Source: a virus. From it: a stretch of DNA of 64,000 bases. The notes under the pieces were generated by a model. That model made no database searches. It was given only the letters and a program-made list of their open reading frames with translations, and was not told where the DNA came from. A program made the translations under genes and the position numbers. Positions 23,821 through 37,763 of this stretch are shown piece after piece; positions within the stretch are counted from its first letter, which is position 1; each line of letters starts with the position of its first letter. Location of the stretch: positions 21,309 to 85,308 of the IMG/VR virus record IMGVR_UViG_3300044998_000260; one strand, given 5' to 3'.

Positions 23821-24894
23821 TTAAGAATAATACAAACGTGGCAAATTGTCAAGCCATATATGTTCACTTCTACGAACATATTTCTTGAGAGCCTTTCTTT
23901 GACACTCAAGCCATATAAAATGACGGTCATAGAATAGAACTCGCTTCATTGCTCGAACAATACTCTTAGTATCGGTAGTCTTGGCCGTGAAAAATTTCGG
24001 CATCCAATCCACTTCGGTAGATGTTACAATCGGTATATCGCGATTGACAAAATCCGCAGAAACAATATTGAATGTTTCCGAGAAACTCACTTGTAAACCA
24101 AGATCCATCTGATCAACCAATGCAATAAACTCATCACGATCAAGCCAATCGTGTTCTACGAGTTCATGCTTGCCGGCCACACCAGCAAATAATGCTCGCA
24201 AATTTTTCAGTACGACTTCACCGCGCTGTTCAATTCTACCCGCATTGATATGAAATCGGAGCTTCAATCCTTTTTGATCCGCAAATTGAATAGCCGCTGC
24301 TGCCTGTGTCAGATGATTTTTCATTGGACGAATTGCGCCAAAGCATCCAATGTCAATCGTTTCGCCTTTATCCCAGAATAATTCGGCCGGCGTTGTTCGA
24401 TCACCTACTGGATAGTAGTTTGGCAAGAACACCAATTTATGTGCCAAATTCCCATCAGTCGTGCTCTTGAAATAATTTATTAAATCGCGATGAGTGAAAT
24501 CTGAGTTTGCAGATACGAACACATTATCTTTTCGAACATAGGCATTGATCCACTCCATTGCAATACCTTCATTTGTTAAAAATGAAAGATCACTATGTAA
24601 ACGAATTATCCATTTGACATTGGGATGTAATCTTCGTAATACATCAAATTTCTCAGGTACCACCCAAAGAGCTTCGATGATAACGATATCGGGTTTGTAT
24701 GCGGTTACTTCACGATCAATAGAATTATTATCTACTACTTGAACAAGCTTTGATTCATATCCGTTCTTCAACAACATTTCATGTACAAATGTTGCAGAAT
24801 TGAACAGACCGGCACTCTTTAGAAGACGATCCCCGCTGTCAGGTCCGTACTGATGACGAAACTTTAGAATGAATAGAACTCGCGGCGTTTTCAT
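23821..24894 (-). CDS. glycosyltransferase-like protein
   Basis: IGCFGAIRPMKNH, SFSETFNIVSAD (GT-B-like). Confidence 0.5.
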   Translation of the reverse strand: MKTPRVLFILKFRHQYGPDSGDRLLKSAGLFNSATFVHEMLLKNGYESKLVQVVDNNSIDREVTAYKPDIVIIEALWVVPEKFDVLRRLHPNVKWIIRLHSDLSFLTNEGIAMEWINAYVRKDNVFVSANSDFTHRDLINYFKSTTDGNLAHKLVFLPNYYPVGDRTTPAELFWDKGETIDIGCFGAIRPMKNHLTQAAAAIQFADQKGLKLRFHINAGRIEQRGEVVLKNLRALFAGVAGKHELVEHDWLDRDEFIALVDQMDLGLQVSFSETFNIVSADFVNRDIPIVTSTEVDWMPKFFTAKTTDTKSIVRAMKRVLFYDRHFIWLECQRKALKKYVRRSEHIWLDNLPRLYYS

Positions 24895-25007
24895 GGATAC
24901 TTCTCGGCAAAGGTGAAATAACAACTATAAATAGTCAAGTCAATTTACGATGTGTGTGATTTTTATCGCGGTTCTTCTCTGAACTGTATGATAATACTTC
25001 CTAATAG

Positions 25008-25079
25008 TACCCTCGTTGGGATTTGAACCCAATCTTCATGTTTAGGAAACGAGCGTGCTGTCCATTACACCACGAAGGC
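25008..25079 (-). tRNA. tRNA-Arg(CCT), weak anticodon stem
   Basis: good acceptor/D/T arms; mismatched anticodon stem. Confidence 0.6.
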
Positions 25080-25081
25080 AT

Positions 25082-25291
25082 CTACGTGTCACGCATATTC
25101 ATATCAAGCGTATAATTACGACTTATGGTAATTTGATTTGAGTCGTAATGGTTAATCTTTCCGGTTTCAAGATTAGCAATCAACCAATGTGTGTTTTCAT
25201 GCGGACCATAATCAATAATGAATAAGGCCTGCCCCATACCATGTGGTGTGTTTACCCATAAAACTTGTTGTATTTCGTGAATGGTGGTCAT
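25082..25291 (-). CDS. hypothetical protein
   Basis: 69-aa ORF, ATGA-coupled to upstream gene. Confidence 0.65.
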   Translation of the reverse strand: MTTIHEIQQVLWVNTPHGMGQALFIIDYGPHENTHWLIANLETGKINHYDSNQITISRNYTLDMNMRDT

Positions 25292-25521
25292 GTAATATAC
25301 GCGACAAGTTTATCATCTTTGGTCTTTAACTCTAAATGACCTTTGAAACGAATGCTGGCCTTGGTATGTGGATTGTCCGGTGTTTCTTTGGTAGAAAATC
25401 CTCGTTCTGACTCAAAGTGCCAAATGTAATGTGTTTGACCCTTGTGCTTGATGATCCACGGTGGAATGTTCTATGGATCGGCGTTATGGGCTTTGTTATA
25501 GTGAAAGATAATGGTATCCAT
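25288..25521 (-). CDS. 77-codon gene with in-frame TAG at codon 17 (readthrough candidate or pseudogene)
   Basis: GAGGA RBS; MDTIIFHYNKAHNADP*NIPPWIIKHKGQ..AYIT; TGA overlaps next ATG. Confidence 0.6.
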
Positions 25522-25685
25522 ACATATTCCTCAATTTATAGTTGATATAATAAACGCCGTTAAGACAGGCCGTTGTTGACCCGCCTCAACGGCGTTGATG
25601 TTTGTCCATGTCCGCCTCAAGCCCACAGAGGTGATTCTAGTTCATAAATTCTTCTTCAATTGGATTGCATATATCCTTGTTTAAG

Positions 25686-25769
25686 CGGAAGCAGAGGGAT
25701 TCGAACCCCCAAAACCTTTCGGTTCGACACTTTTCAAGAGTGCTTAACACGCCAATTGTTCGTGCTTCC
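25686..25769 (-). tRNA. tRNA-Ser(TGA)
   Basis: cloverleaf. Confidence 0.9.
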
Positions 25770-25821
25770 ATTATTCATTATAACTTATACTTATCGTATT
25801 TTGTAGAAGTTAATTTTGCAG

Positions 25822-25894
25822 TGCTCACGGAAGGGATCGAACCTTCTATCTCTGCTATGTCAAAGCAGCGTGTTAGCCGGTACACCACGCGAGC
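25822..25894 (-). tRNA. tRNA-Val(GAC)
   Basis: cloverleaf. Confidence 0.9.
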
Positions 25895-25898
25895 AATA

Positions 25899-25971
25899 TG
25901 CCCATAGCGGGACTTGAACCCGCATCAACCGTTTTAGAGACGGTTGCTCTATGCCTTTGAGCTATATGGAC
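25899..25971 (-). tRNA. amber suppressor tRNA (CTA)
   Basis: ACCGT-CT CTA AA-ACGGT; complete 73-nt cloverleaf. Confidence 0.9.
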
Positions 25972-26046
25972 TGGAGGTACGAGGTGGATTTCAACCACCG
26001 CCTTCAGTTTTGCAAGCTGATGTCTTGAGCACTTGACTATCGTACC
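25972..26046 (-). tRNA. tRNA-Cys(GCA), CCA encoded
   Basis: cloverleaf. Confidence 0.8.
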
Positions 26047-26049
26047 ATT

Positions 26050-26126
26050 TGGTGGCAGACACGGGAGTCGAACCCGCTATCTCATTGGTTATGAGACAAA
26101 ATGGTTTTCCGTTCCACTCACCTGCA
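26050..26126 (-). tRNA. tRNA-Met(CAT)-like, weak anticodon stem
   Basis: 1-72 mismatch, CCA encoded. Confidence 0.6.
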
Positions 26127-26136
26127 ATTTTTCTAG

Positions 26137-26210
26137 TGGCGGGAGGAGGATTTGAACCTCCGACCTCGACGTTATGAGCGTCGCGAGCTACCAGGCTGCT
26201 CTATCCCGCA
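26137..26210 (-). tRNA. initiator-like tRNA-fMet(CAT)
   Basis: 1-72 mismatch, GAGCAGCCTGGTAGCTCG D-arm. Confidence 0.85.
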
Positions 26211-26211
26211 G

Positions 26212-26284
26212 TTGCTCTTCCAGGGATCGAACCTGGACTTTCCTGTTTCAGAGACAGGCGTGTTGCCTATTACACCAAAGAGCA
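26212..26284 (-). tRNA. tRNA-Gln(CTG)
   Basis: cloverleaf. Confidence 0.9.
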
Positions 26285-26293
26285 ATAAAAATG

Positions 26294-26488
26294 AATGTTC
26301 CGTAGCCGCAGTTCTGTTCTATCCTATCATTTATCTAAGCACCAACCCGCAGTTCTCTAGGGTCAAGCAATCTGCTGTTTGGCTTGCTGCGTTGCTGTGG
26401 TCTACGCGATGGTATTACCATCTTCCACATCCCCATTGCAGCTGCGAACTTCCTCCAGGTGTCACCACCCAGCGATAGGTCGAACATT
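26294..26488 (-). ncRNA. rnpB: minimal RNase P RNA (195 nt)
   Basis: GAGGAAGTTCGCAG..AGATAAATG..AACAGAACTGCGGCT; P1-P4, P6, P15 pair. Confidence 0.88.
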
Positions 26489-26509
26489 CATTAATATGTT
26501 TTACTATAG

Positions 26510-26582
26510 TCGGGATGGAGGGACTCGAACCCCCGATTTCTTGCTCCCAAAGCAAGTGCCATAGCCACTAGGCGACATCCCG
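26510..26582 (-). tRNA. tRNA-Pro(TGG)
   Basis: cloverleaf. Confidence 0.92.
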
Positions 26583-26588
26583 ATAAAA

Positions 26589-26919
26589 AGAAACGGACTG
26601 AGATTACATCCGTTTATGATTACCCGTTTGTTGGATTATTCCAACCCGTGTCCCCACGGGCCGTTCCCAACTTATCCACACCCTCATGGGCGTCGGCAAT
26701 CAGAGCGACCTTTTTTAAGGTGTGGCATTTCACCTGTCGTCTGGCGCTACTCAACCTTTTCTCTACCACCGAGCTTGCGGCCCGTTCAACTCCGCTAAGA
26801 GTTTATGTGCGAGTCTGGATTGATGAATCTCCGTCTTGGGAACATCGACTCAGCCACATTCGTTACCGTGTGGCATTACGCTCTTTTTCGCGTTCAGACC
26901 GAGGAAGTCTTTCCATTTT
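26589..26919 (-). ncRNA. short GOLLD-like structured RNA
   Basis: no ORF, many hairpins; GTTGAGTAG, GTGGATAAG, AATAATCC, GTAATCTCAG resemble GOLLD 3' domain (recalled). Confidence 0.5.
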
Positions 26920-26994
26920 TGGGTTCAATAGTGGGATTCGCACCCACAACCGATTCTTTAGCATAGAATTGCTCAACTATTGAGCTATATTGAA
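26920..26994 (-). tRNA. atypical tRNA-like gene, anticodon GCT, short variable region, C73, CCA encoded
   Basis: TTCAATA/TATTGAA acceptor; T-loop TGCGAAT. Confidence 0.6.
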
Positions 26995-26996
26995 AC

Positions 26997-27480
26997 CTTG
27001 AGCGAAGTGCTTCCTCAGTAGTTCCCGTATCTTTTGGATACAGAAATGCTACACTCCGCAGTTGTGTTCGGCTTGCGACCTACTTCACCATGTTTTGCGA
27101 CCACGAGCGGCACTTCTAACAGTCGCCCCGCCCAGACCACTCACATTGCAATTCAGCCCTTGACTGCAAAATCTCAAACTGAATTACTATCTGTTACCGA
27201 TACTTCCTCGGCCGTTGGTATGAAAGGAGCCCGGCACCACCCGTCAGACTTCGGTAACCCGCTTTCCTTTCGGGGCGTCGGCTACCGTTCTTTCCCTTTC
27301 ACGACCTTCGGACCTATCACCGCTTTGGGAGCGATGCCACCACAGTCGCTGTGGTGTCGGCCAGACTTGCTTCGGCGAGCGAGACTTTCATCTCACGGGG
27401 ATTACAAGGATACACCCCTTTATATGTCTTACGACATACTATTCTCACGGACCCGAAGCGGCCCGTTACTTCAGTTTTCA
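26997..27480 (-). ncRNA. ROOL-like large structured RNA
   Basis: TGAATTGCAAT, GTAGCATT, CCAAAAG..GGGAAC..ACTTCGC resemble ROOL 3' region (recalled); many hairpins. Confidence 0.5.
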
Positions 27481-27526
27481 ATCAACATTCACGGGGTGAA
27501 GCTGAACCAGCTTCACCCGCCACCAC

Positions 27527-27685
27527 TCACTTTTTATCGTTGTGTGAGTCAACTACTGTCAATCCTTGTCTCTTTGCCTGTTCTTGAAGAGCTTCTACAT
27601 GTCGCTTGCCAAGAGCCTCGGCTTCGGCAAGAAAAACCGGATAATTGGCTTCGGTAATAACGACTTCACACGAATTGTTTGCCAT
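27527..27685 (-). CDS. 52-aa hypothetical protein
   Basis: AGAGGA RBS; MANNSCEVVITEANYPVFL.. Confidence 0.55.
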   Translation of the reverse strand: MANNSCEVVITEANYPVFLAEAEALGKRHVEALQEQAKRQGLTVVDSHNDKK

Positions 27686-27708
27686 ATTTCCTCTTTTGTT
27701 TTAGAAAA

Positions 27709-27780
27709 TACCGGTACGGGGAATCGAACCCCGATTCTGAGATTGAAAGCCTCATGTCCTAGCCGTTAGACGATACCGGC
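27709..27780 (-). tRNA. tRNA-Glu(TTC)
   Basis: cloverleaf. Confidence 0.92.
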
Positions 27781-27787
27781 ATCTGGC

Positions 27788-27954
27788 TGTGAGGTATCTC
27801 CTCACTATCGCTTTGCCATGCGGCTCCGACGATGCCTCGGAACACGGCCGACTAAGACCGCCCCTTAGTCGAAGGCCCGTGTACATATTTCACCTGTGCT
27901 AGTCATACACGGCTGATTCGGCACTAGGCGCGGCTTTGATCTTGCCGCCTCACA
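27788..27954 (-). ncRNA. unclassified multibranched RNA
   Basis: closing stem TGTGAGG/CCTCACA with 3-4 internal hairpins. Confidence 0.5.
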
Positions 27955-27977
27955 ACACAAAGTATTGGAGTGTAGAG

Positions 27978-28050
27978 AGCAGATGGCGGGATTCGAACCC
28001 GCGACGACCGCCTTGGCAAGGCGACATTCTAGCCACTGAATTACATCTGC
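27978..28050 (-). tRNA. tRNA-Gly(GCC)
   Basis: cloverleaf. Confidence 0.92.
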
Positions 28051-28051
28051 G

Positions 28052-28125
28052 TGGAGCGGTTATACTGAGTTGAACAGTTCTTCCTTACTGGGAAGTAAGG
28101 CGTGCTGACGTTACACTAAAACCGC
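28052..28125 (-). tRNA. tRNA-Gly(CCC)-like, anticodon loop one nt short
   Basis: CCTTAC-TTCCCA-GTAAGG; CCA encoded. Confidence 0.6.
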
Positions 28126-28141
28126 ATAATTACATTTTTAA

Positions 28142-28212
28142 TTGGCCCCCAGGGATTCGAACCCCGATTAGCTGATCCAAAGTCAGCAGTCCTGCCGTTG
28201 AACGAGAGGCCA
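28142..28212 (-). tRNA. tRNA-Gln(TTG)
   Basis: cloverleaf. Confidence 0.92.
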
Positions 28213-28228
28213 ATAATTTATCTTTAAG

Positions 28229-28302
28229 AGCGGGTTACGGGATTCGAACCCGTACCGTCACCTTGGAAGGGTGTCATGCTAGCCATTGAACACCAAACCC
28301 GC
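28229..28302 (-). tRNA. tRNA-Gly(TCC)
   Basis: cloverleaf. Confidence 0.9.
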
Positions 28303-28304
28303 AT

Positions 28305-28415
28305 TTGAGCCTAGAATATAACATCTAATCTCAATCAGCATTTACTAGGCTCAACCCCGTTGTACCTTACGATATTATCGCGGGTCTGTTTCGGAGCAAT
28401 GTTATCTGATTGAGA
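28305..28415 (-). ncRNA. unclassified pseudoknot RNA
   Basis: two interleaved perfect 10-bp helices. Confidence 0.5.
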
Positions 28416-28418
28416 AAG

Positions 28419-28724
28419 TGCCTGTGGAGGGAGTCGAACCCACACTTCGGAGATTTTCTTACCACTATAACTTTCGTTACATTTCTACCTGATTATGATA
28501 GAAATTTTTGTGGTCTGGACTATACCTTTACCTTCAACTTTACTTGTTAAGGTACGCGCCGTCTAGTCTCTACACTTTCAATGAGAAAAAAAACAGTCTC
28601 AAAGCTTAGCTCGGGATTGGCAGTTAAGCTTTCCCCGAATTTGACGCGATTCACCAATCATATTTCTATGATAGTGCTCAAATTTGTTTAAGTCTCCTGC
28701 CTCTGCCAATTGGGCTACACAGGC
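28419..28724 (-). tRNA. tRNA-Leu(TAA) split by group I intron
   Basis: exons 28724-28690 and 28457-28419; CTT^AAAA. Confidence 0.9.
28458..28689 (-). mobile_element. group I intron (tRNA-Leu UAA type), 232 nt, no ORF
   Basis: P AATTCGGGGAA, Q AATCCCGAGC, R GTAGAGACTAGACGG, S AAGGTATAGTCC, terminal G. Confidence 0.9.
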
Positions 28725-28810
28725 ATATAATTATTTCACGATCAAGTTTTACTTCAATTGTCAATCAGCATTGTCTTACAAGTATAACTAGTGACAATTT
28801 ATTTGTCAAG

Positions 28811-28883
28811 TACCAGTAATGGGTGCCGACCCCATTTAGCCTTGTTTATGAGACAAGTGACGATGCCGACCGTCCCCACTGGC
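28811..28883 (-). tRNA. tRNA-Met/Ile2(CAT), atypical T-loop
   Basis: T-loop GTCGGCA. Confidence 0.7.
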
Positions 28884-28894
28884 ATATATCTTAG

Positions 28895-28968
28895 TGCCCT
28901 CGGTGAGATTTGAACTCACACTATTCAGTTTTTGAGACTGACGCCTCTGCCGGTTGGGCTACGAGGGC
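28895..28968 (-). tRNA. tRNA-Leu(CAA), short variable region
   Basis: cloverleaf. Confidence 0.85.
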
Positions 28969-29028
28969 ATATATCATTGATTATTTGATTACGTTGTTAT
29001 CATTCAACGGCCTTTCGGCTATGTCTTA

Positions 29029-29109
29029 TGCGCTTGGAGGGACTTGAACCCCCACTCCTTTCGAAACTTGATCCTAAGTCAAGCGTGTCTGCCATTCCAC
29101 CACAAGCGC
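29029..29109 (-). tRNA. tRNA-Leu(TAG)
   Basis: cloverleaf with variable arm. Confidence 0.92.
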
Positions 29110-29157
29110 GTTGTTTTCACTTCCATAAGTATAGAACATCTATTAAACGATGTCAAG

Positions 29158-29231
29158 TGCTCTTGAGAGGATTCGAACCTCCACTTGCAAGTTTCTCGAA
29201 CTTGTGCCTCTGCCTGTTGGGCTACAAGAGC
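29158..29231 (-). tRNA. tRNA-Leu(GAG), short variable region, C33
   Basis: loop TC GAG AA. Confidence 0.8.
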
Positions 29232-29274
29232 ATAGGTGCCGGTTTTGAGAGAACCGGCAAACTCATCCACCAGA

Positions 29275-29547
29275 TTAAGCGAGCGACCACTCGGTAATCG
29301 TGCGTCCCTTGGCCTCAGGCCGAGTCGAGTTCGTATAACCGACGCTACGGAATTCGCCGCCCTGAAACGCCGAATTGATAACGGCGATACGGCTGCGAAT
29401 CTTACCTTCGAGCATACCCTGGCGATTCATATAGTTCTGCGCGTCATCGGCAGTAACCGTCCGACTCGAACGCTTACGAGCCAAACTACGAAGGTATGAA
29501 CGAAGACTAGTGACAACACTCTCATTCCGCGAAGCAAGATTTGACAT
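29275..29547 (-). CDS. hypothetical protein
   Basis: RBS AGGAG; sigma70-like promoter upstream. Confidence 0.65.
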   Translation of the reverse strand: MSNLASRNESVVTSLRSYLRSLARKRSSRTVTADDAQNYMNRQGMLEGKIRSRIAVINSAFQGGEFRSVGYTNSTRPEAKGRTITEWSLA

Positions 29548-29644
29548 ACAACCATTTCTCCTTTTTTTGTGACGGGTCCATCCCGTCAACATAATGTAAT
29601 CTATGATAGGGGCGCGGATTTGTCAAGCCCCAATTTTTAATTAC

Positions 29645-30007
29645 CTAAATTGATGACAATGTGTGTTTTACAGGACAACCATTTTCGTCTACACAAACAA
29701 ATTTCATTTCTTCAATTTTGACAATTTCTTTTTGTGTAGTTAAATCTCTAACCACCACTTCCAGTGTCACAGAAGTTTTTCCTACCTGCTTAAGACTTAC
29801 ACCGATTTCTACTATGTCCCCTTGAAATGCCGGTGCAATAAAATTAATAGCAGAAATACTTTTTGTAACCACTCGACGATGCTTTGTTTCAATTGCTACA
29901 AATATTGCTGCTTCTTCGTCTACCCATTCCAGTAATCGTCCACCAAACAATGTATTATTTGCATTAAGATCATTCGGTTGAACTAATTTACGAGTTAAGA
30001 ATTTCAT
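29645..30007 (-). CDS. acyl-CoA thioesterase (HotDog fold)
   Basis: DLNANNTLFGGRLLEWVDEEAA..VGKTS. Confidence 0.9.
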   Translation of the reverse strand: MKFLTRKLVQPNDLNANNTLFGGRLLEWVDEEAAIFVAIETKHRRVVTKSISAINFIAPAFQGDIVEIGVSLKQVGKTSVTLEVVVRDLTTQKEIVKIEEMKFVCVDENGCPVKHTLSSI

Positions 30008-30013
30008 ATAACT

Positions 30014-30056
30014 GCAATGTTTAAACTATTGCCTCTGCCCGTTGAGCTACAAGGGC
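30014..30056 (-). pseudogene. tRNA 5'-half fragment
   Basis: GCCCTTGTAGCTCAACGGGCAGAGGC with no T-arm. Confidence 0.5.
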
Positions 30057-30640
30057 AGTGAAACTATCCAAGAAGTATTATGTAGATATACTTTATCACC
30101 AAATACCTCATCGACTGCTCTTTTAACTCCTGGCCAATCGTAATCATGACCCGCGATGACGCTTTCAGGTTTCATTTTTGGCATCCATAAATTAATATCT
30201 TCAAGAGCGCCCTCGTAAGAATGATCTGCATCAATAAACAGAAAATCGATTGACCGATCTTCAAATTCATTGTGTGCCACTCTTGTGGACATGCGAATTA
30301 GATTAACATAGGAATCCAATGAAAAATGCTTCAACACCGCTAACACTGAGTGATAACATGCATCTTCACTCATTGGAATATTCAGATAATTCATCCAATG
30401 AATATCTCCCGCACTCCACTCGCCGGCCGTAGCGCCGCGCAAATCCCAAAAATCAACACTATAAAACTTGATATTTTTTTTACTATTTTTGATACATTGA
30501 GCCATTTGAGCCGTGCTCCGACCCCACAAAGAACCAAGTTCTACAAATACAGATCCATCATCCGCCTCGTCCACATAATGAGCGTATATATCATCAAAAT
30601 TGCAAAATCCTGGAATTTGATAGATACTTGTTAAATTCAT
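30047..30640 (-). CDS. class I SAM methyltransferase (Methyltransf_24-like)
   Basis: FVELGSLWGRS, IDFLFIDADHSYEG, AGHDY. Confidence 0.9.
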   Translation of the reverse strand: MNLTSIYQIPGFCNFDDIYAHYVDEADDGSVFVELGSLWGRSTAQMAQCIKNSKKNIKFYSVDFWDLRGATAGEWSAGDIHWMNYLNIPMSEDACYHSVLAVLKHFSLDSYVNLIRMSTRVAHNEFEDRSIDFLFIDADHSYEGALEDINLWMPKMKPESVIAGHDYDWPGVKRAVDEVFGDKVYLHNTSWIVSLPL

Positions 30641-30697
30641 AATATTCACTGTAATGGTTAATAGTTGACCCACATTAATATTTCAATCACTTATCAG

Positions 30698-30772
30698 TAG
30701 GAGTGACGGGATTCGAACCCGCATTGCACTCGTTGAAAGCGAGGGTTCCTAGGCCAATTAGAAGACACTCCC
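30698..30772 (-). tRNA. tRNA-Glu(TTC)
   Basis: cloverleaf. Confidence 0.88.
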
Positions 30773-30777
30773 ATAAT

Positions 30778-30857
30778 GTGGTGCTCTACCTTTAAGCTAC
30801 ACAGCATAGCTCAAGTCGCGTCGCTGTGACGGGATTCGAACCCGCACCTACCACCAC
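30778..30857 (-). ncRNA. circularly permuted tRNA-like RNA
   Basis: T-arm and 3' acceptor precede 5' acceptor and D-arm; ends pair GTGGT/ACCAC. Confidence 0.75.
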
Positions 30858-30873
30858 TTTGACCTTTCGGCCA

Positions 30874-30946
30874 TACCGCTAGCGGGAATCGAACCCGCCT
30901 TTCCACTGTGAGAGAGTGGCGTCCTCAACCGATAGACGATAGCGGC
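30874..30946 (-). tRNA. tRNA-Glu(CTC)
   Basis: cloverleaf. Confidence 0.92.
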
Positions 30947-30950
30947 AAAG

Positions 30951-31028
30951 TGATGTAGATGCCAATGCTTTCCTTTGTCTTTAAGCCTTTCGGCGTTCGG
31001 ATACCACCTAGCTTGTGCATCTACATCA
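30951..31028 (-). ncRNA. unclassified stem-loop RNA
   Basis: 12-bp perfect closing stem TGATGTAGATGC/GCATCTACATCA; GCC-GAAA-GGC inside. Confidence 0.45.
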
Positions 31029-31029
31029 G

Positions 31030-31105
31030 TCGGGATAGCCAGATTCGAACTGGCGCACTCCTGTATCCGAAACAGGCGAGGTTGACCTGGCTCCTCCACA
31101 TCCCG
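31030..31105 (-). tRNA. tRNA-Pro(CGG)
   Basis: cloverleaf. Confidence 0.9.
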
Positions 31106-31112
31106 ATAAAAG

Positions 31113-31185
31113 CGCCCTTGGCAGGAATCGAACCCACATCTGCGGAGGTAGAAGCTCCGTGCCTTCTCCATTAGACCACAAGGGC
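31113..31185 (-). tRNA. tRNA-Arg(TCT)
   Basis: cloverleaf. Confidence 0.92.
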
Positions 31186-31310
31186 AATTCATTCATTGTC
31201 ATCAATATCATCGGACTCAAATTCAAATCCATCAATATTACGATACTTGTGTGCCGTTGGATGAGAATCGTATCCTCGGTTGTGACCTGTTCTCCAGTGC
31301 ATCGCCTTGT

Positions 31311-31883
31311 TCAACTTAGTCCCAACTTAGTCCACACATTGTTACGAAGCATCGACTCTCGGAGTTCACCAAACCGAGATTCAATCTCTTGATTGGGAAT
31401 CCAATGTTGAGTCACCATATTTGGTTCTTTACGAAATACCAAATAAAAGTCATTCATAAATACACAGCCAGTCACAATATACTTCTGTTTATAGCCACGA
31501 ATGTGTGTGACATCCACCCATTCACGTTTTGTGAAAAACGACTTGTGCTTTTCACTCAATTCATCGTATTGTTGTTGCGTCAAATACTTTGGCTTCTGTG
31601 GTATTGGTTCCCATTTATTCGTTTTCCAGTTACGACGAAGGAACTTTTCATTATTACAGAATTCAATCGTATTAATCTTATCTAGCACTTGTTGCATTTC
31701 TCGAGCATCTTTACGATTCTTTGCATCATCACTAAGAACATAATACCGAACCCATCCGCGCTGATACGGTTCTACATCGATCCATTCACCGCTCTTACGG
31801 CGTGCGTCAGACAAAGTCGTGTATTCGTTCCAGATACGGCGAATCCGCTTGTGTTCTTCGGTCTTATAATTACGCCGCATCAA
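31311..31883 (-). CDS. hypothetical protein, C-terminus frameshifted by 11-bp duplication
   Basis: CAACTTAGTCC x2 at 31312-31333. Confidence 0.7.
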   Translation of the reverse strand: MMRRNYKTEEHKRIRRIWNEYTTLSDARRKSGEWIDVEPYQRGWVRYYVLSDDAKNRKDAREMQQVLDKINTIEFCNNEKFLRRNWKTNKWEPIPQKPKYLTQQQYDELSEKHKSFFTKREWVDVTHIRGYKQKYIVTGCVFMNDFYLVFRKEPNMVTQHWIPNQEIESRFGELRESMLRNNVWTKLGLS

Positions 31884-32379
31884 TACCCTTATATTTCCGT
31901 AAATATCGGTTTCTTTTTGTATCTTTCTTTTGTCTAGTTACAAATGTTTCTGTTTGACTATGACAGTTGGGACATAAAAGTCTAAGGTTTTTCGGCAAAT
32001 TGTTATCACTATTGCCGTCTATGTGATCTAGTTGTAGAGTAAGTGGTTTGTTTAGATGTTTACCTAAATTTCCACAACCAACACATACATAACCAACAGT
32101 TCTAGTGATGTAGTTCTTTAGTGTTGAAGCTTGTGACACTTCGCCATTTTCTACTCTAATTCGTGTTATAGTCTCAAACTTGTAAGTCTTGTCACACTCA
32201 ATAGAACAACATCTGAATCGGCTTTCTTTGCCACAAACTCTACAATTATAGAGTGTTGATTTTCTTTGTCTTTTAGGAAATTTGTTGTTGTTGACGATTG
32301 CCGCACATTTCCGTGAACAAAATTTATTTTGTGGTTTACTAGAAATATCCGTATTGCAGTTTATACATAAATTTATCAT
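31870..32379 (-). CDS. HNH endonuclease with Zn ribbons
   Basis: LQLDHIDGNSDNNLPKNLRLLCPNCHSQT. Confidence 0.92.
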   Translation of the reverse strand: MINLCINCNTDISSKPQNKFCSRKCAAIVNNNKFPKRQRKSTLYNCRVCGKESRFRCCSIECDKTYKFETITRIRVENGEVSQASTLKNYITRTVGYVCVGCGNLGKHLNKPLTLQLDHIDGNSDNNLPKNLRLLCPNCHSQTETFVTRQKKDTKRNRYLRKYKGIDAA

Positions 32380-32439
32380 ATAGGATTCGAATTGTGGTTA
32401 CCTATATAAGTAATATTTACTGTTAGTTTCAATTCAAAA

Positions 32440-32516
32440 TACTCCGTGTAGGATTCGAACCTACGATCATATCCTGTATGTAAGACAGGTGCCCTGGGCC
32501 ACTAGGCGAACGGAGT
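32440..32516 (-). tRNA. tRNA-Val(TAC)
   Basis: cloverleaf. Confidence 0.88.
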
Positions 32517-32522
32517 GTAAAG

Positions 32523-32593
32523 TTACCCCACTACGATTCGAACGTAGATTCGTTGGTTCAAAGCCAACTGTCTTGCCATTAGACGATGGGGCA
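32523..32593 (-). tRNA. tRNA-Gln(TTG)
   Basis: cloverleaf. Confidence 0.9.
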
Positions 32594-32684
32594 ATGTATT
32601 GCCTTATCGTTGGATAAGGCAATAAATACGGACTCTAGCTACACTCCGGAGTGACTAGTTTAATCGGGTCCGTGCCGAAATCAA

Positions 32685-32758
32685 TGTGCCATACTGGAAT
32701 CGAACCAGTGACCACCGATTTATAAGACCGGTGCTCTAACCAACTGAGCTAATGGCAC
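32685..32758 (-). tRNA. tRNA-Ile(TAT)
   Basis: cloverleaf, CT TAT AA. Confidence 0.88.
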
Positions 32759-32764
32759 ATAAAA

Positions 32765-32838
32765 TGCACGTGGTAGGATTCGAACCTACGCACTTCGAAT
32801 TATGAGTTCGCTGCTCTAACCAACTGAGCTAAGGGACC
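32765..32838 (-). pseudogene. chimeric tRNA(CAT), acceptor strands do not pair
   Basis: 5' GGTCCCT vs 3' CACGTGC. Confidence 0.7.
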
Positions 32839-32858
32839 GTTAGAGATGTCGTTTATAA

Positions 32859-32958
32859 TACGCCTACTGGGACTTGAACCCAGAATAATCCGCATATCAG
32901 GCGGCTCCTTTCGGGCGGAGGTATAAGCTCCGTGCTTTAACCATTAAGCTATAGGCGC
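32859..32958 (-). tRNA. tRNA-Ile(TAT) with ~30-nt variable region
   Basis: cloverleaf + extra CCGC-CTGATAT-GCGG hairpin. Confidence 0.75.
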
Positions 32959-32974
32959 GTATATTCACCACAAG

Positions 32975-33051
32975 TCCGCCCAATAGGAATCGAACCTACG
33001 TGGTACCGTCTATTCTTTCAACCGCATATCAGGCGGAGGGAATATGGGCGG
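32975..33051 (-). ncRNA. rearranged tRNA-like RNA with GAT loop, copy 1
   Basis: 7-bp acceptor and T-arm; no canonical D/anticodon arms. Confidence 0.7.
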
Positions 33052-33067
33052 ATATTTTTACTACAAG

Positions 33068-33143
33068 TGCGCCCGACTGGAATTGAACCAGTGTGTACCG
33101 TCTACCTTTTCAACCGCTTATCAGGCGGAGAGGATACGGGCGC
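33068..33143 (-). ncRNA. rearranged tRNA-like RNA with GAT loop, copy 2
   Basis: same fold with compensatory changes. Confidence 0.7.
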
Positions 33144-33148
33144 GTATT

Positions 33149-33586
33149 TTACAAATATTCAAGTTTCCACCAATTAAAACTATGTGCTGTTTTTATTTGA
33201 TGACAATTTGCACATCTAATTATACACTTAGATATTTCTTGTTTTAAACGAGCCATTCCTATAGGACGTTTTGAAGAAATTTTTTCGCTTATATTAAAAT
33301 GTTTATTCGTTTGATGATCGAATTGTAGAGTTAGAATATTACGTTCACCACAATCTATACAAGGATTTTGTTTCAAATACTCTATAACATAATCACGTAT
33401 TTGTCTTATGCGTTTTTCTGAGTGTACGGATGCGGTTGTTATACGTTTTTGTCTATGTTTGATGTAATATTGTTCTTGATATGTTTTTTCACACAACTTA
33501 CATCTATGTGTAAGTCCGTTTCTTTTCTTGTAAAATTCAGAAACATGTTTTTCTTTATTACATATAGAACACTGTTTTGTATTCAT
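33149..33586 (-). CDS. HNH endonuclease
   Basis: CIDCG..LQFDH..CIIRCANCH. Confidence 0.9.
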   Translation of the reverse strand: MNTKQCSICNKEKHVSEFYKKRNGLTHRCKLCEKTYQEQYYIKHRQKRITTASVHSEKRIRQIRDYVIEYLKQNPCIDCGERNILTLQFDHQTNKHFNISEKISSKRPIGMARLKQEISKCIIRCANCHQIKTAHSFNWWKLEYL

Positions 33587-33758
33587 ATTATTCTCCAATG
33601 TGTGATACATATAATATGGAGTTGAACGTCAAAACGTATGTATCAGATCAACATATTTCCTTCTAAGAGCCCCCAATCGGTTCTGGTCCGTCCTCTCCGA
33701 GCCATTTATCTACTTCTTAATTTTCGTCCAAACCCTTTATTTTGCGAATACAGAAAAG

Positions 33759-33839
33759 AGCTGCCTGTGAGAATCGAACTCACAATATCTTACGATGCTA
33801 CCATACCAAGGTAGTGCCTTTCCATTAGGCTAAGGCAGC
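33759..33839 (-). tRNA. tRNA-Thr(GGT) with long variable arm
   Basis: variable ATC-GTAA-GAT hairpin. Confidence 0.8.
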
Positions 33840-33843
33840 ATTA

Positions 33844-33958
33844 TGGGAAACCAACATACATCCGAAGATAAGTTGTGTGGTGCTGTGTCAGCAGTCTTCG
33901 ATATTCATCTACCCTGACAGATAGTGAATCCTTATCTTTTCTTACCACTAAATTCCCA
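33844..33958 (-). ncRNA. unclassified RNA with possible kissing loops
   Basis: AAGATAAG/CTTATCTT stem; loops TGTCAG and CTGACA complementary. Confidence 0.45.
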
Positions 33959-33960
33959 AG

Positions 33961-34032
33961 AGCTCGATTAGAGAGTTGAACTCTATTCTCTGACTTACGA
34001 GGCCAGTGCATCACCCTTTATGCTTATCGAGC
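33961..34032 (-). tRNA. tRNA-Thr(CGT)
   Basis: cloverleaf. Confidence 0.85.
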
Positions 34033-34120
34033 AATTTCCACCAACCAAATTGCTTGGCTGTTTTACGTTTATGACAATTTGCACATCTAACTTCACATTT
34101 ACTAATTTCATTTAGATTAC
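34011..34120 (-). pseudogene. HNH endonuclease C-terminal relic
   Basis: EISKCEVRCANCHKRKTAKQFGWWK, paralogous to end of 33149-33586. Confidence 0.75.
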
Positions 34121-34123
34121 GAG

Positions 34124-34199
34124 ACTCTCCGACAGGATTTGAACCTGCGATTTGTACGGTTTTGCAGACCGTTGCCTTTGACCACTCAGCCACGGAGAG
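34124..34199 (-). tRNA. tRNA-Cys(GCA)
   Basis: cloverleaf. Confidence 0.88.
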
Positions 34200-34242
34200 A
34201 AGAAAACGTCACTTATCGGTGAGTATTACACACCTTAGACAA

Positions 34243-34326
34243 AGCTGGTGGTGGGATTCGAACCCACGGTGGGATTGCTCCGCTTGCTTACAAGGCAAGT
34301 CCTATCAACCGCTAAGGGACACCAGC
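34243..34326 (-). tRNA. tRNA-Thr(TGT) with long variable arm
   Basis: variable GGA-GCAA-TCC hairpin. Confidence 0.82.
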
Positions 34327-34359
34327 AAATTACAATTTACTTGTTTAAGCCGTCTACGA

Positions 34360-34409
34360 TTGTTAGATGGTTTACAAAACCTGTGCATCACCATTAATGC
34401 TTAAAGAGC
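34360..34409 (-). pseudogene. tRNA-Thr(TGT) 5' fragment
   Basis: acceptor 5', D-arm and anticodon only. Confidence 0.5.
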
Positions 34410-34490
34410 ATAAATCAACAAAAGTGGATTAGAACATCGTTGGTCTTACATGCTAACACTTCTATGTTTACAATCACACATTTTTTTGTG

Positions 34491-34557
34491 GTTTCCGTTC
34501 GGGTTGGGTTACTTTCTAAATCTACACAATAACAACTTTTTTGTCAAGCCCTCTGAT
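34491..34557 (-). promoter_or_regulatory. sigma70-type promoter + AACCCAACCCG leader, duplicated at 57969-58036
   Basis: TTGACA-17-TAGATT; ~65-bp near-identical copy. Confidence 0.75.
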
Positions 34558-34648
34558 CGCGATCAGAAAACGCCCCATGTTCCTATTGAAAAATTAAGTG
34601 GAGGATGAGAGAATTGCAATTCAATTTTGATGTTTTCCACTAATTATA

Positions 34649-34721
34649 TGGAGACTACGGGTAACGCTCCCGTTCCTACGCATTGCAAGTGCGTCGTGCC
34701 ACCTTTTAACACCTAGTCCCC
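34649..34721 (-). tRNA. tRNA-Ala(TGC), atypical T-loop
   Basis: G3-U70; T-loop AGCGTTA. Confidence 0.8.
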
Positions 34722-34722
34722 A

Positions 34723-35247
34723 ATGTCTTTCATTACTAAAATCTGCCAAGTGTGTGCCAAAGAATTTCAAGCAAAACTGTCGGAACATAAACGTGGCAAC
34801 TCAAAAACTTGTTCAAAGAAATGCGGTGCAGTTCTTAGTTCAAGGGTTCGTACAAAAATCAAAATTCCGAACGCCACCTGTGCATTTTGCAAAATCGAAT
34901 TTTACATGCGTCCATCATCCAAGAAAAATTCAAAGAGTGGTATTTTCTTTTGCTGCCGAACACATAAAGATATGGCACAACGGCTCGGTGGTATTCCAGA
35001 AATTCAACCAGCACACTACGGTACTGGTAATGGAATTAGTACATACAGAGACTTAGCATTTTCACATTACGATGCGCGGTGCAACCAATGTGGATATCAA
35101 AAGTTCAAAGAAGTGTTAGATGTTCATCACATTGATAATGATAGATCAAACAACAACATAGAAAATTTAGAAATACTCTGTCCTACATGCCACCGAGAAC
35201 GACACTATATACTAAAAACAGGATGGTATGCGCGATCAAAAAAGTAA
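34723..35247 (+). CDS. HNH endonuclease, antisense to tRNA array
   Basis: LDVHHIDNDRSNNNIENLEILCPTCH. Confidence 0.92.
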   Translation: MSFITKICQVCAKEFQAKLSEHKRGNSKTCSKKCGAVLSSRVRTKIKIPNATCAFCKIEFYMRPSSKKNSKSGIFFCCRTHKDMAQRLGGIPEIQPAHYGTGNGISTYRDLAFSHYDARCNQCGYQKFKEVLDVHHIDNDRSNNNIENLEILCPTCHRERHYILKTGWYARSKK

Positions 35248-35330
35248 TCATCATGTACCATACACTCGAAAGTGTAGATTGGACTCGAACCAATTTTAAC
35301 CAGAGAACAACAATTCATCGTACCACAAAC

Positions 35331-35402
35331 TACCACAGTAGGAGTCGAACCCTATCTTCCTCTTTGCAAGAGAGGCGCTTTCCCAAATTAAGCTACCGGC
35401 CC
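35331..35402 (-). pseudogene. chimeric tRNA-Ala(TGC), mispaired acceptor
   Basis: 5' GGGCCGG vs 3' CTGTGGT. Confidence 0.65.
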
Positions 35403-35407
35403 ATAAG

Positions 35408-35482
35408 AGTACCGTGTGGGGATCGAACCCACCTATAACTGTTTAACAGACAGCCGCAATCAACCAGACATGCCAACGGTAC
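35408..35482 (-). tRNA. tRNA-Asn(GTT)
   Basis: cloverleaf. Confidence 0.85.
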
Positions 35483-35588
35483 ATAATACATTTACATTTG
35501 TCGTGTGTAACTGGTGGACTCGCCTTCGCTACATTCGGACACGACACCGAATACAGTGTTTAACTCGCTCTGGCTGAGCCCACACAAG

Positions 35589-35660
35589 ATGGAGTGAAAG
35601 GAATTGAACCTTTATCATCGCTTTCAGAGAGCGAGGTAATTGCCGTTATACGACACTCAA
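35589..35660 (-). tRNA. tRNA-Gln(CTG)
   Basis: cloverleaf, one acceptor mismatch. Confidence 0.8.
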
Positions 35661-35665
35661 ATAAA

Positions 35666-36238
35666 TCAAATTAGTTCATACTTTTTTGCCCACTTACGAA
35701 CTGCGTTATCAGACACATTATATTTTCTACCTATCGCAGCCCATGAATATTTTTCTAAATCATGTTGTAATTCAATTTTTGTTGGTCTTTTCACAACACG
35801 ACGATTTAAAGATTTACAATCATCACAACATCTACGACTTTTACTAAATGTATTTAATGTAGTGTTACAATATTTACAAGTTCGAATCTTTGGTTGTCTT
35901 ACTTCACGATAATTTATATACGATTCATCAAACTTAATATAGTTATTTGGCAACTTTGTAACACCTGCTTCAACTTCTCTATGACAATTTGAACATAAAA
36001 GAACACACCTACGCAGTTCTTCTACAACAACATTCCATTTTTTTGGATTTGCTATTACTTGTGATATACTAAAGTTTTTTGTTGACGGATCTATGTGATG
36101 AAAATCCATTGCTTCTATGCATGAACAGTATCCACATATAACACATTTACCGCCCATAGAATCTACCATTAATTTTTTTGTAGATTTACGCCACTTGTTT
36201 ACTTTTTTACTATTACTACTCATAGAATTACTCCTCAT
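35666..36238 (-). CDS. HNH endonuclease with C-terminal HTH-like segment
   Basis: CVICGY..MDFHHIDP..CVLLCSNCH; SWAAIGRKYNVSDNAVRKW. Confidence 0.92.
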   Translation of the reverse strand: MRSNSMSSNSKKVNKWRKSTKKLMVDSMGGKCVICGYCSCIEAMDFHHIDPSTKNFSISQVIANPKKWNVVVEELRRCVLLCSNCHREVEAGVTKLPNNYIKFDESYINYREVRQPKIRTCKYCNTTLNTFSKSRRCCDDCKSLNRRVVKRPTKIELQHDLEKYSWAAIGRKYNVSDNAVRKWAKKYELI

Positions 36239-36287
36239 TTATCTATAAGTAGTTCGAACTATCGAAAAAGTAACATATACTGTTATA

Positions 36288-36359
36288 CAGGAGCGGAAAG
36301 ATTCGAACTTTCATTGACGGAGTAACAATCCGTGGGCTTGCCTTTTAGCCGACACTCCT
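36288..36359 (-). tRNA. tRNA-Asn(GTT)
   Basis: cloverleaf. Confidence 0.82.
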
Positions 36360-36407
36360 AAAAATGAAGGTTCCTCGCCGGCCTGCGCCGTCACCTACAA
36401 CCGACAG

Positions 36408-36481
36408 GGTGAATGACGGGATTTGAACCCGCGTCTGCAGCCTTCACAGGGCTGTGTAATATCCGCTATACTACATTCACC
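36408..36481 (-). tRNA. tRNA-His(GTG)
   Basis: G-1 and C73. Confidence 0.92.
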
Positions 36482-36627
36482 ATAATTGGCAGTTTTGTCG
36501 CCGAAGCGCCAGTGTCGAACTCTGCCAAACGACATTTTTGTTGTGTAAGGTGCCTTTCGGCTTTAAATGATCCGTTATCCTCTCTCCCACTCTGACGGAT
36601 CAAGCAGGTCAATTGACACAACATATA

Positions 36628-36700
36628 TGCACCGCCTGGGACTCGAACCCAAATCTTACCGGTTAAGAGCCGGATGTAATAGCCATTATACTAACGATGC
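36628..36700 (-). tRNA. tRNA-Lys(CTT)
   Basis: cloverleaf. Confidence 0.9.
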
Positions 36701-36704
36701 GTTA

Positions 36705-36779
36705 TGCCCCTGGTAGGATTCGAACCCACACCTGATAGATTAAAAGTCTACTGTGCTCGCCGTTAAACACCACAGAGGC
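36705..36779 (-). tRNA. tRNA-Lys(TTT)
   Basis: cloverleaf. Confidence 0.9.
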
Positions 36780-36791
36780 GTTGTACTACAG

Positions 36792-36867
36792 TCTGGACGA
36801 CTGGATTCGAACCAGCGTGCTCCTCCTCCCAAGGGAGGCGAGGTAAACCAGGCTCCTCAACGTCCAG
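36792..36867 (-). tRNA. tRNA-Pro(TGG)
   Basis: cloverleaf. Confidence 0.88.
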
Positions 36868-36873
36868 ATAAAG

Positions 36874-36945
36874 TGCCCTCATCAGGATTCGAACCTGAAA
36901 TCGGAGTTCCGTAGACTCCTGTGATGTCCATTTCACTACAAGGGC
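36874..36945 (-). tRNA. tRNA-Arg(ACG)
   Basis: cloverleaf. Confidence 0.9.
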
Positions 36946-37020
36946 ATAGTCCGATATTTGTATTGCGTGTCGGAATCAGCACGCTTGCCGTTATGGCTTT
37001 ATGTCAAAAATCTACTTCAG

Positions 37021-37108
37021 TGCGTGTGGAGGGAATTGAACCCCCGACGGGCTTTTACACCAACGGATTTACAGTCCGGTGCCACCAACCAGCATTGGCC
37101 TCACACGC
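37021..37108 (-). tRNA. tRNA-Tyr(GTA)
   Basis: GCGTGTG/CACACGC acceptor, long variable arm. Confidence 0.9.
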
Positions 37109-37184
37109 GACATCAAGTTAAGAATTTGCCAAACCGGCATACTTTCTTGATGTTTCGACTCCAACGAGTCATCATCAGGCGTGT
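37103..37184 (-). ncRNA. type I hammerhead ribozyme; predicted cut between 37109 and 37108
   Basis: ACACGC-CTGATGA-T-GACTC(GTTG)GAGTC-GAAA-CATCAAG..CTTGAT-GTC^GCGTGT. Confidence 0.9.
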
Positions 37185-37196
37185 CCTACTTTTTGT

Positions 37197-37225
37197 ATTA
37201 TACCTAATATCAACTTATTTGTCAA
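37197..37225 (-). promoter_or_regulatory. perfect sigma70 consensus promoter ahead of hammerhead-tRNA-Tyr
   Basis: TTGACA-17-TATAAT. Confidence 0.9.
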
Positions 37226-37230
37226 GCCAA

Positions 37231-37317
37231 CGGAAACGGCCGGAGTCGAACCGACATTGCCTTTTGAGGGGCTTGACTGTTTTCGAAACAGCTTGCTACA
37301 CCAATTGCCGCGTTTCC
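37231..37317 (-). tRNA. tRNA-Ser(CGA)
   Basis: cloverleaf. Confidence 0.88.
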
Positions 37318-37331
37318 AAATTCACTATCAG

Positions 37332-37420
37332 CGGAAAGTAAGGGATTCGAACCCTTTAAACCGTTTTACAGGTTTACTGCTTAGCAGGCAGTTGCACCGC
37401 GCCATCTGTGCCGACTTTCC
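37332..37420 (-). tRNA. tRNA-Ser(GCT)
   Basis: cloverleaf. Confidence 0.9.
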
Positions 37421-37424
37421 AAAG

Positions 37425-37496
37425 CGCCCCAAGAGGGATTCGAACCCCCACTAAAACGTTCGAAGCGTTTCGTGCTCTCCGTTACACTATCGAGGC
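37425..37496 (-). tRNA. tRNA-Arg(TCG)
   Basis: cloverleaf. Confidence 0.88.
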
Positions 37497-37512
37497 ATAT
37501 CACAACATCAAG

Positions 37513-37584
37513 TCCCACTGGCAGGGATCGAACCTGCCTCTCCGGTTCTTCAGACCGGCGCTAATCCATCTCAGCTACTGTGGG
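37513..37584 (-). tRNA. tRNA-Phe(GAA)
   Basis: cloverleaf. Confidence 0.88.
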
Positions 37585-37608
37585 ATATCTTGAACCCACA
37601 CCTATACA

Positions 37609-37682
37609 CAGGTCGGGAGGGAATCGAACCCATCTTTAAGGCAGTTTTGGAGACTGCTGTTCAACCGGAGAACATCCGACCC
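37609..37682 (-). tRNA. tRNA-Trp(CCA)
   Basis: cloverleaf. Confidence 0.85.
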
Positions 37683-37763
37683 ATAGTTTTATGACTTTTG
37701 CGTGCAATTTTCTGTGACAGTTGGCACATAAAACTACACATTTACTAATTTCTTAAATTTTGA

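Follow-up and report, generated by a model that had tools for sequence, protein, structure and literature searches.

The window, by which is meant the whole 64,000-nucleotide (nt) stretch of DNA that was analysed, covers positions 21,309 to 85,308 of the IMG/VR virus record IMGVR_UViG_3300044998_000260. It contains a polycistronic tRNA array in which tRNA-Glu(CUC) is followed by a small, circularly permuted tRNA-like RNA at 30778-30857 and then by tRNA-Glu(UUC), and it is this permuted element that is the subject here. The source contig is a virus record of 105 kb that was judged 48% complete, and the public runs listed as containing the record are hot-spring and microbial-mat metagenomes, with no RNA run among them. 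ARAGORN made 48 calls (tRNAs together with one transfer-messenger RNA, tmRNA), 45 of which fall within ~21000-38000, all on the minus strand. At 30778-30857, a canonical tRNA with an anticodon is called by ARAGORN no more than by the Rfam tRNA model (RF00005), which is to say by neither. No promoter or terminator was found adjoining the element, and it should therefore be made within a tRNA precursor.

Read directly from the sequence, 30778-30854 (minus strand) forms a 77-nt circularly permuted tRNA body in which tRNA positions 40-73 come first, a linker follows and positions 1-30 come last, such that only positions 31-39 are missing (Table 1). The two acceptor strands pair at seven of seven positions, one of them a G-U pair, and the tRNA core nucleotides U8, A14, G18, G19, A21, U54U55C56, A58 and A73 are present, as is the loop sequence UUCGAAU. 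The bases A-C-G-C are encoded after the acceptor stem, and no CCA is encoded. Over 21 nt that include the T-arm, the element has the same sequence as the T-arm region of tRNA-Glu(UUC) next to it; when a parent tRNA or amino-acid identity was sought, no close paralogue of the element was found in the array or among 1,957 phage tRNAs. The original prediction, made from the letters of the sequence, had described a permuted tRNA-like RNA in which all tRNA helices form, the ends lie in the anticodon stem and there is no anticodon loop. Every segment that it listed was found on the minus strand in the place given, and the sequence and the minimum free energy (MFE) fold both agree with this description: at 37 °C the MFE fold of the 77-nt core is the permuted cloverleaf in both of the alleles tested. 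The folding-energy z-score of the core is unremarkable, which is to be expected of tRNAs. ARAGORN calls a tRNA once the halves are un-permuted and joined by a dummy 9-nt anticodon insert, and hence the missing part is exactly positions 31-39. The closing helix of five base pairs (bp) that had been proposed, GUGGU/ACCAC (30853-30857), stands only as one of two possible registers in the window allele, where the sequence reads GUGGUGG; the allele of the related contig L126 keeps only the 4-bp GUGG/CCAC register, which makes A26 canonical and the variable loop 5 nt long.

Table 1. Coordinates, within the window, of the parts of the permuted element, its flanks and other features of the tRNA array.
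Feature	Position	Strand	Remark
5' flank: hairpin GGCC-GAAA-GGUC (30861-30872) and AAAGUG	30855-30872	-	
Closing (anticodon-stem-like) helix, 5' strand GUGG	30851-30854	-	pairs with CCAC
Variable loop UAGGU (positions 44-48)	30846-30850	-	
T-arm GCGGG/UUCGAAU/CCCGU	30829-30845	-	
3' acceptor strand CACAGCG	30822-30828	-	
Discriminator-like A73	30821	-	
Linker CGCGACUUGAGCUA	30807-30820	-	14 nt; caps the acceptor stem
5' acceptor strand UGCUGUG	30800-30806	-	
U8A9	30798-30799	-	
D-arm GCUU/AAAGGUA/GAGC	30783-30797	-	
A26	30782	-	
Closing helix, 3' strand CCAC	30778-30781	-	
Trailer AUUAU	30773-30777	-	5 nt; reaches the 5' end of tRNA-Glu(UUC)
tRNA-Glu(CUC)	30873-30947	-	upstream neighbour of the element
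tRNA-Glu(UUC)	30697-30772	-	downstream neighbour of the element
One-piece tmRNA, normal type	21033-21378	-	tag ANPALALAA
Conserved 367-amino-acid (aa) protein gene	23821-24924		within the array; many relatives
tRNA with CUA anticodon (amber suppressor type)	25899-25971	-	
RNase P RNA-like gene	26287-26491	-	in the array; bacterial RNase P class A model, 55.4 bits
GOLLD RNA	26595-27061	-	in the array; 198 bits; encloses a tRNA-like call
Group I intron	28498-28699	-	in the array; 65 bits

The permuted arrangement is more than chance. Across the junctions between neighbouring tRNAs of the array, the acceptor strands reach seven of seven pairs in none of 29 cases, and in other viral contigs they do so in two of 117 T-loop-to-D-arm junctions, one being a YrlA-like module on contig L021 and the other a tandem tRNA pair. 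A strict scan for permuted tRNAs through 1.94 Mb of fetched DNA returned the element, its allele and only two chance-like matches. The same arrangement was found in independent assemblies from other samples, which shows that it is not a mis-join or assembly artefact.

Homologues of the element are present in four related phage contigs, namely the window, L126, L274 and L282, and their place after tRNA-Glu(CUC) and before tRNA-Glu(UUC) is conserved. L126 is a JGI contig from a strain variant, to which a member of the 90% cluster of the neighbouring methyltransferase led, whilst L274 and L282 were found through relatives of the 367-aa array protein (67% and 66% identical); in these last two the element lies between tRNA-Glu(CUC) with a small hairpin and tRNA-Glu(UUC). 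The model R1 scores the window element at 109 bits and the other three at 95-109 bits (94.8 for L274, 101 for L282). The L126 core differs by five changes in the same 77 nt, of which three fall within the variable loop and the other two affect the linker; both linker changes are shared by contigs from other runs. Pairwise identity of the element among the four genomes is 91-96%, compared with 89-100% for tRNA-Glu(UUC), 48-88% for tRNA-Glu(CUC) and 97-100% for tRNA-Pro(CGG), and most spacers can no longer be aligned between these genomes. Ten of the 78 columns of the four-genome alignment vary, and all ten are among the 38 unpaired columns. The variable loop contributes three of its five columns, the linker its positions 1, 8 and 9, and the D-loop its positions 16 and 20 together with an insertion; position 26 varies as well. 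All 40 paired bases are invariant, as are the T-loop, U8, A14, G18G19, A21 and A73, and all 20 base pairs are standard and unchanged in four of four genomes. The chance that ten variable columns would all be unpaired if changes fell at random is ~4 in 10,000, a figure that loses some of its force if neighbouring changes arose in one event. Two separate broken tRNAs, the outcome that would have told against a permuted unit, were not seen; the relatives keep the unit whole.

The sequences on either side of the unit have been replaced or enlarged. The GUGG closing strand is invariant in the four genomes even though everything 5' of it in L126 is unrelated sequence, which holds a 158-nt structured RNA and an HNH-type open reading frame (ORF); this replacement locates the 5' edge of the unit and singles out the 4-bp GUGG/CCAC register. 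The 5' hairpin GGCC-GAAA-GGUC of the window recurs in L274 and L282, where a G-U pair has become A-U. On the 3' side, a conserved 222-nt structured RNA (L274:1396-1624 and L282:1587-1813) lies between CCAC-AUU and tRNA-Glu(UUC) in two of the relatives and is absent from the window and L126; five of its 62 predicted pairs show compensatory changes, and no Rfam family matches it at E up to 5. An origin of this RNA from a permuted intron or ribozyme was considered and set aside, there being no such family at that E value and no upstream intron half. Since the paired bases are invariant and the flanks have been swapped or inserted, the element appears to be an autonomous RNA under selection, as opposed to debris left by recombination: judged by sequence comparison, the module is a constant unit amid changing flanks and evolves like a functional tRNA gene. 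The 158-nt RNA of L126 (L126:5651-5786) has a z-score of -3.2 and a 13-bp closing stem, and contains a T-arm-like hairpin, ACCCG-UUCGAGU-CGGG, as well as a stretch resembling a tmRNA 5' end (GUGAAGCUGGAUUCG); together with the T-arm of the module it gives a composite tmRNA match of 22 bits.

Searches for further homologues were made at several levels. The exact 21-mer comprising the T-arm and acceptor strand had 0 matches in IMG/VR, and a pattern running from T-loop to D-arm retrieved 117 loci there, almost all of which are tandem tRNAs. A first metagenome scan gave 0 matches and a second gave at least 120 random hairpins, with a T-loop in none among the matches listed; these metagenome scans may omit near-identical records. 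BLAST against 50,697 cultured phage records returned T-arm matches only, and over 50 viral records model R1 found only tandem-tRNA junctions (no more than 41 bits) and the YrlA-like RNA of L021 (43 bits). The latter (L021:308-373, minus strand) is a YrlA-like permuted tRNA module in the tRNA array of an unrelated 100-kb viral contig. Its acceptor stem of 6-7 bp is capped by 4 nt, its closing stem measures 8-9 bp, and it contains a V-arm-like hairpin. When the neighbouring methyltransferase was used as a synteny anchor, its relatives were found in sugar-modification clusters without tRNAs, and the rIIA-like gene used in the same way led to a small tRNA cluster only. No antisense target of the linker was found in the window beyond chance.

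The surrounding array is a mosaic, with HNH endonuclease genes inside it and whole blocks that differ between strains. GOLLD RNA and tmRNA are found in the relatives L274 and L282 too. The match to the bacterial RNase P model is 205 nt long, spans the whole model and has a local E of 2e-16 with a score below the cut-off of 100; by its sequence, it is best described as a much shortened RNase P RNA-like gene. A 190-aa ORF at 31311-31883 matched no family, and it is missing in L126, where the module is kept, so that it is not an obligatory neighbour. Further along, the region made up of 58181-60436 and 56839-57948 (both minus strand) includes the gene of a 751-aa ATPase-like protein; because a rIIB homologue adjoins it in relatives, it is probably rIIA, which would mark the phage as T4-like. 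In L268, whose rIIA is 67% identical, an RtcB RNA ligase is encoded next to a small tRNA cluster (L268:17208-18416). Capsid and terminase families were not found in the 105-kb contig.

Several other unusual RNAs occur in the array. tRNA-Pro(CGG) is separated from tRNA-Glu(CUC) by a spacer that forms an 80-nt long hairpin (30948-31028, minus strand), with an 11-bp closing stem, GAUGUAGAUGC/GCAUCUACAUC, and a GCC-GAAA-GGC tip, which is kept in L126 and L282. C-GAAA-G tetraloop hairpins are located in array spacers and extra arms at 25716, 27267, 29012, 29058, 30864, 30987, 32908 and 36554 (minus strand), and four of them have the form GCC-GAAA-GG. A tRNA(UAU) and an adjacent tRNA-like RNA lie at 32859-32958 and 32975-33060 (both minus strand): the tRNA carries a 28-nt extra arm with a second anticodon-like hairpin, CCGC-CUGAUAU-GCGG (GAU), and an identical hairpin replaces the D-arm region in the tRNA-like RNA just upstream, whilst the corresponding site in L126 is occupied by an ordinary tRNA-Ile(GAU). 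A further tRNA body, at 32773-32831 (minus strand), has the anticodon CAU and no acceptor stem; its match to the tRNA model (47 bits) is confined to positions 8-63.

The closest known relative of the element is the tRNA-like domain of the bacterial Y RNA YrlA, above all that of Mycobacterium smegmatis YrlA, and the topology itself has already been described for YrlA. Both consist of a permuted tRNA body with a T-arm, a loop-capped acceptor stem and a D-arm, and in both the ends fall where a tRNA has its anticodon stem and the anticodon loop is lacking; in its T- and D-arm sequences the element comes close to the YrlA consensus, and YrlA genes occur in phages too. The alignment to the Rfam YrlA model (RF02553; local E 7e-7) runs from the T-arm through the closed acceptor to the D-arm. 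M. smegmatis YrlA is the sole YrlA with a 7-bp acceptor stem and was cut by RNase P in vitro at the position of a tRNA 5' end, and of two bacterial Y RNAs tested in parallel none was cut (Chen et al. 2014, PMC4201824). In vivo, M. smegmatis YrlA was found cut and with CCA added (PMC4201824; Wang et al. 2018, bioRxiv 10.1101/312249). The element differs from YrlA in having neither the long terminal helix nor a conserved GNCGAAN0-1G motif nor rsr nearby, in a score of about half the family cut-off, in a 15-nt acceptor 'loop' and in its location inside a tRNA operon as a tRNA-like domain alone. What is new is a tRNA-like domain that stands alone, without a Ro handle or rsr in reach, with a full-length acceptor stem and a long linker, and that is conserved at the level of a tRNA in one T4-like phage lineage with very large tRNA arrays. 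The tRNA-like domain of tmRNA and the tRNA-like structure (TLS) of turnip yellow mosaic virus (TYMV) share with the element an L-shaped tRNA mimicry outside decoding; they differ in encoding a free CCA at the 3' terminus and in their connectivity, and Rfam matches to them here are negligible.

The reading that we favour, with a probability of roughly 60%, is that the element is an autonomous small non-coding RNA, a permuted tRNA body made from the operon and matured by RNase P and CCA addition, which likely serves as a decoy or adaptor. From the observed sequence, fold and conservation we infer the following course of transcription, processing and action. The element would be transcribed within the long tRNA operon of the phage and freed by the enzymes that trim the tRNAs: an RNase P cut at the 5' end of tRNA-Glu(UUC) would set a 3' end, CCAC-AUUAU, that an exonuclease could trim, and the 5' side would probably retain the small hairpin as a leader. 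With M. smegmatis YrlA as precedent, the 7-bp acceptor stem, A73 and the single-stranded linker lead us to expect an RNase P cut and CCA addition. The cut in the linker is predicted to fall before U1, between 30807 (A, -1) and 30806 (U, +1), after which the new 3' end would be trimmed back to A73, where the next base is C, and CCA would be added. This would leave an L-shaped tRNA composed of two associated pieces, its acceptor end free and its anticodon loop lacking, which would be unable to decode; such a two-piece tRNA-like RNA appears to be the most likely processing fate. Our best guess at its role, based on the sequence features, is that of a tRNA decoy or adaptor. It would bind a host or phage protein that reads the tRNA body or the acceptor end, and a decoy of this kind would keep the recognition surfaces of a tRNA except for the decoding site or the site cleaved by anticodon nucleases. 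That the phage makes a two-piece, anticodon-less tRNA on purpose, either as an uncleavable decoy for host defence proteins that target tRNAs, be they anticodon nucleases or toxins that modify the acceptor end, or as a chargeable carrier of amino acids that the ribosome could not use, is a doubtful proposition to which we nevertheless give some credit; in either use the element would represent a stand-alone, Ro60-independent class of phage tRNA mimic.

A number of observations weigh against the favoured reading. The element is carried by four genomes of a single phage lineage only; the two related lineages at 61-64% (L275-L281) showed none in the 10 kb examined, and no homologue was found in IMG/VR, among the matches listed from the metagenome scans or among the cultured phage records. 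There is no covariation, every pair being invariant, so that support for the fold comes from conservation and thermodynamics. The closing helix is only 4 bp long, and an alternative hairpin, in which the last five bases of the linker (AGCUA) pair with U8-U12, competes with the cloverleaf when flanks are included and, for the window allele, at 55 °C. Eleven of the 14 linker positions are invariant in the four genomes, which fits poorly with a discarded spacer; given this and the AGCUA pairing, the linker may have a role of its own. Finally, no CCA-adding enzyme was found in the contig, and that of the host would be needed.

One alternative, which we consider unlikely, is that the element is a true YrlA-family Y RNA that tethers Ro60 to a nuclease, the Ro60/Rsr protein being supplied by the unsequenced half of the phage or by the host. 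YrlA is the best Rfam match besides tRNA, and YrlA-type RNAs are known in mycobacteriophages (PMC4201824). The scores (37.4 bits for the window, 36.1 for L126 and 33.9 for L274) nevertheless fall short of the gathering threshold of 69 bits; the alignment lacks the Ro-binding terminal helix (model positions 13-19 and 91-97), and the 3' end of the element lies 5 nt from the next tRNA, which leaves no room for the 3' strand of that helix. In the window allele, GCCGAAAG lies 18 nt before the T-stem, a spacing similar to that of the model, and fits GNCGAAN0-1G, the published Ro60/Rsr-binding motif (PMC4201824). This sequence, however, belongs to a type of GAAA hairpin with four occurrences in the array, reads ACCGAAAG and ACCGAACG at the same site in L274 and L282 and is absent from that place in L126, and its reading as a Ro-binding motif was dropped in favour of a recurrent hairpin. 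According to Chen et al. 2014 (PMC4201824), YrlA genes are almost always encoded on the strand of rsr and no more than 4 kb away from it, but no match to a TROVE gene was obtained in the whole 105-kb contig, in agreement with the earlier statement that no Ro60/Rsr gene is visible; control genomes were positive, and since the contig is 48% complete a distant gene is conceivable. In L274 and L282, none was listed, either, among genes up to 19 kb downstream. Of the YrlA-like mimic put forward in the original prediction, the architecture thus holds, as the T-arm, acceptor and D-arm align to the model, and the Ro60 partnership does not. Improbable to a similar degree is the view that the element is non-functional debris, formed by recombination from a tandem pair of identical tRNAs that each lost their outer half. 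The mosaic nature of the array, its HNH genes and strain-variable blocks, the truncated or odd tRNA-like pieces nearby and a visible exchange of T-arms and variable loops between array members (the variable loop of L126 is that of a tRNA-His) would all suit such an origin; debris would not be expected to keep 91-96% identity where spacers are unalignable and a conserved protein is 66-67% identical, to be spared changes in all 40 paired bases and the tRNA core bases, or to remain whole whilst its flanks turn over.

There is likewise a small chance that the module is one domain of a larger RNA that includes the 222-nt RNA, and that the phage of the window lost the latter part. That RNA lies directly 3' of the module in L274 and L282 and has compensatory changes in its pairs, but the module is unchanged in the window and L126, which are without it; furthermore, the 222-nt RNA folds on itself and shows no conserved pairing with the 5' flank of the module. 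Permuted tRNA genes reportedly occur in Cyanidioschyzon merolae and other algae and in Thermofilum pendens. In these algal and archaeal genes all nucleotides of the tRNA are encoded, the archaeal/eukaryotic splicing machinery joins the transcript into a circle at a bulge-helix-bulge motif, and decoding tRNAs result. A gene of this type, whose transcript ends would be joined to a circle and whose linker would then be removed, shares with the element the order of 3' half, linker and 5' half, with a linker between the acceptor strands that RNase P and a 3' nuclease could remove; the related phage of L268 encodes RtcB, and the array itself holds an RNase P-like RNA. The explanation is nonetheless very improbable, as the gene lacks the nine nucleotides of positions 31-39, the anticodon among them, the leader and trailer are not alike in the four genomes and match no intron or ribozyme family, and neither leader-trailer complementarity nor a bulge-helix-bulge motif was seen at the element. 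For the same reasons, and with no RtcB or other RNA ligase found in the contig when RtcB was looked for as had been suggested, the earlier idea of a precursor to a ligated, decoding tRNA is not supported. That the element might be the acceptor piece of a two-piece (permuted) tmRNA has practically no chance of being correct and is already refuted by anatomy: the permuted cyanobacterial tmRNA model (RF01851 and relatives) scores 10.3 bits and the composite match in L126 22 bits, far below the cut-offs of 70 and 47, and the element has a true 4-bp D-stem in place of the D-loop analogue of tmRNA. Moreover, only 29 nt separate the 5' acceptor strand from the next tRNA, with no room for a tag frame or pseudoknots, and the phage already has a normal one-piece tmRNA.

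The tRNA arrays of phages are increasingly viewed as weapons with which to counter host defences based on cutting or depleting tRNAs. A conserved member of such an array that is tRNA-shaped and non-decoding suggests that arrays may encode decoys or adaptors in addition to spare tRNAs. The small size of the element, its sharp boundaries and its precisely predicted RNase P site make it a convenient model. The element also shows that the YrlA-type tRNA-like domain can occur and be selected alone, without a Ro60 handle, and the mimic function is thereby separated from the function of tethering Ro60, a question that was left open by Chen et al.

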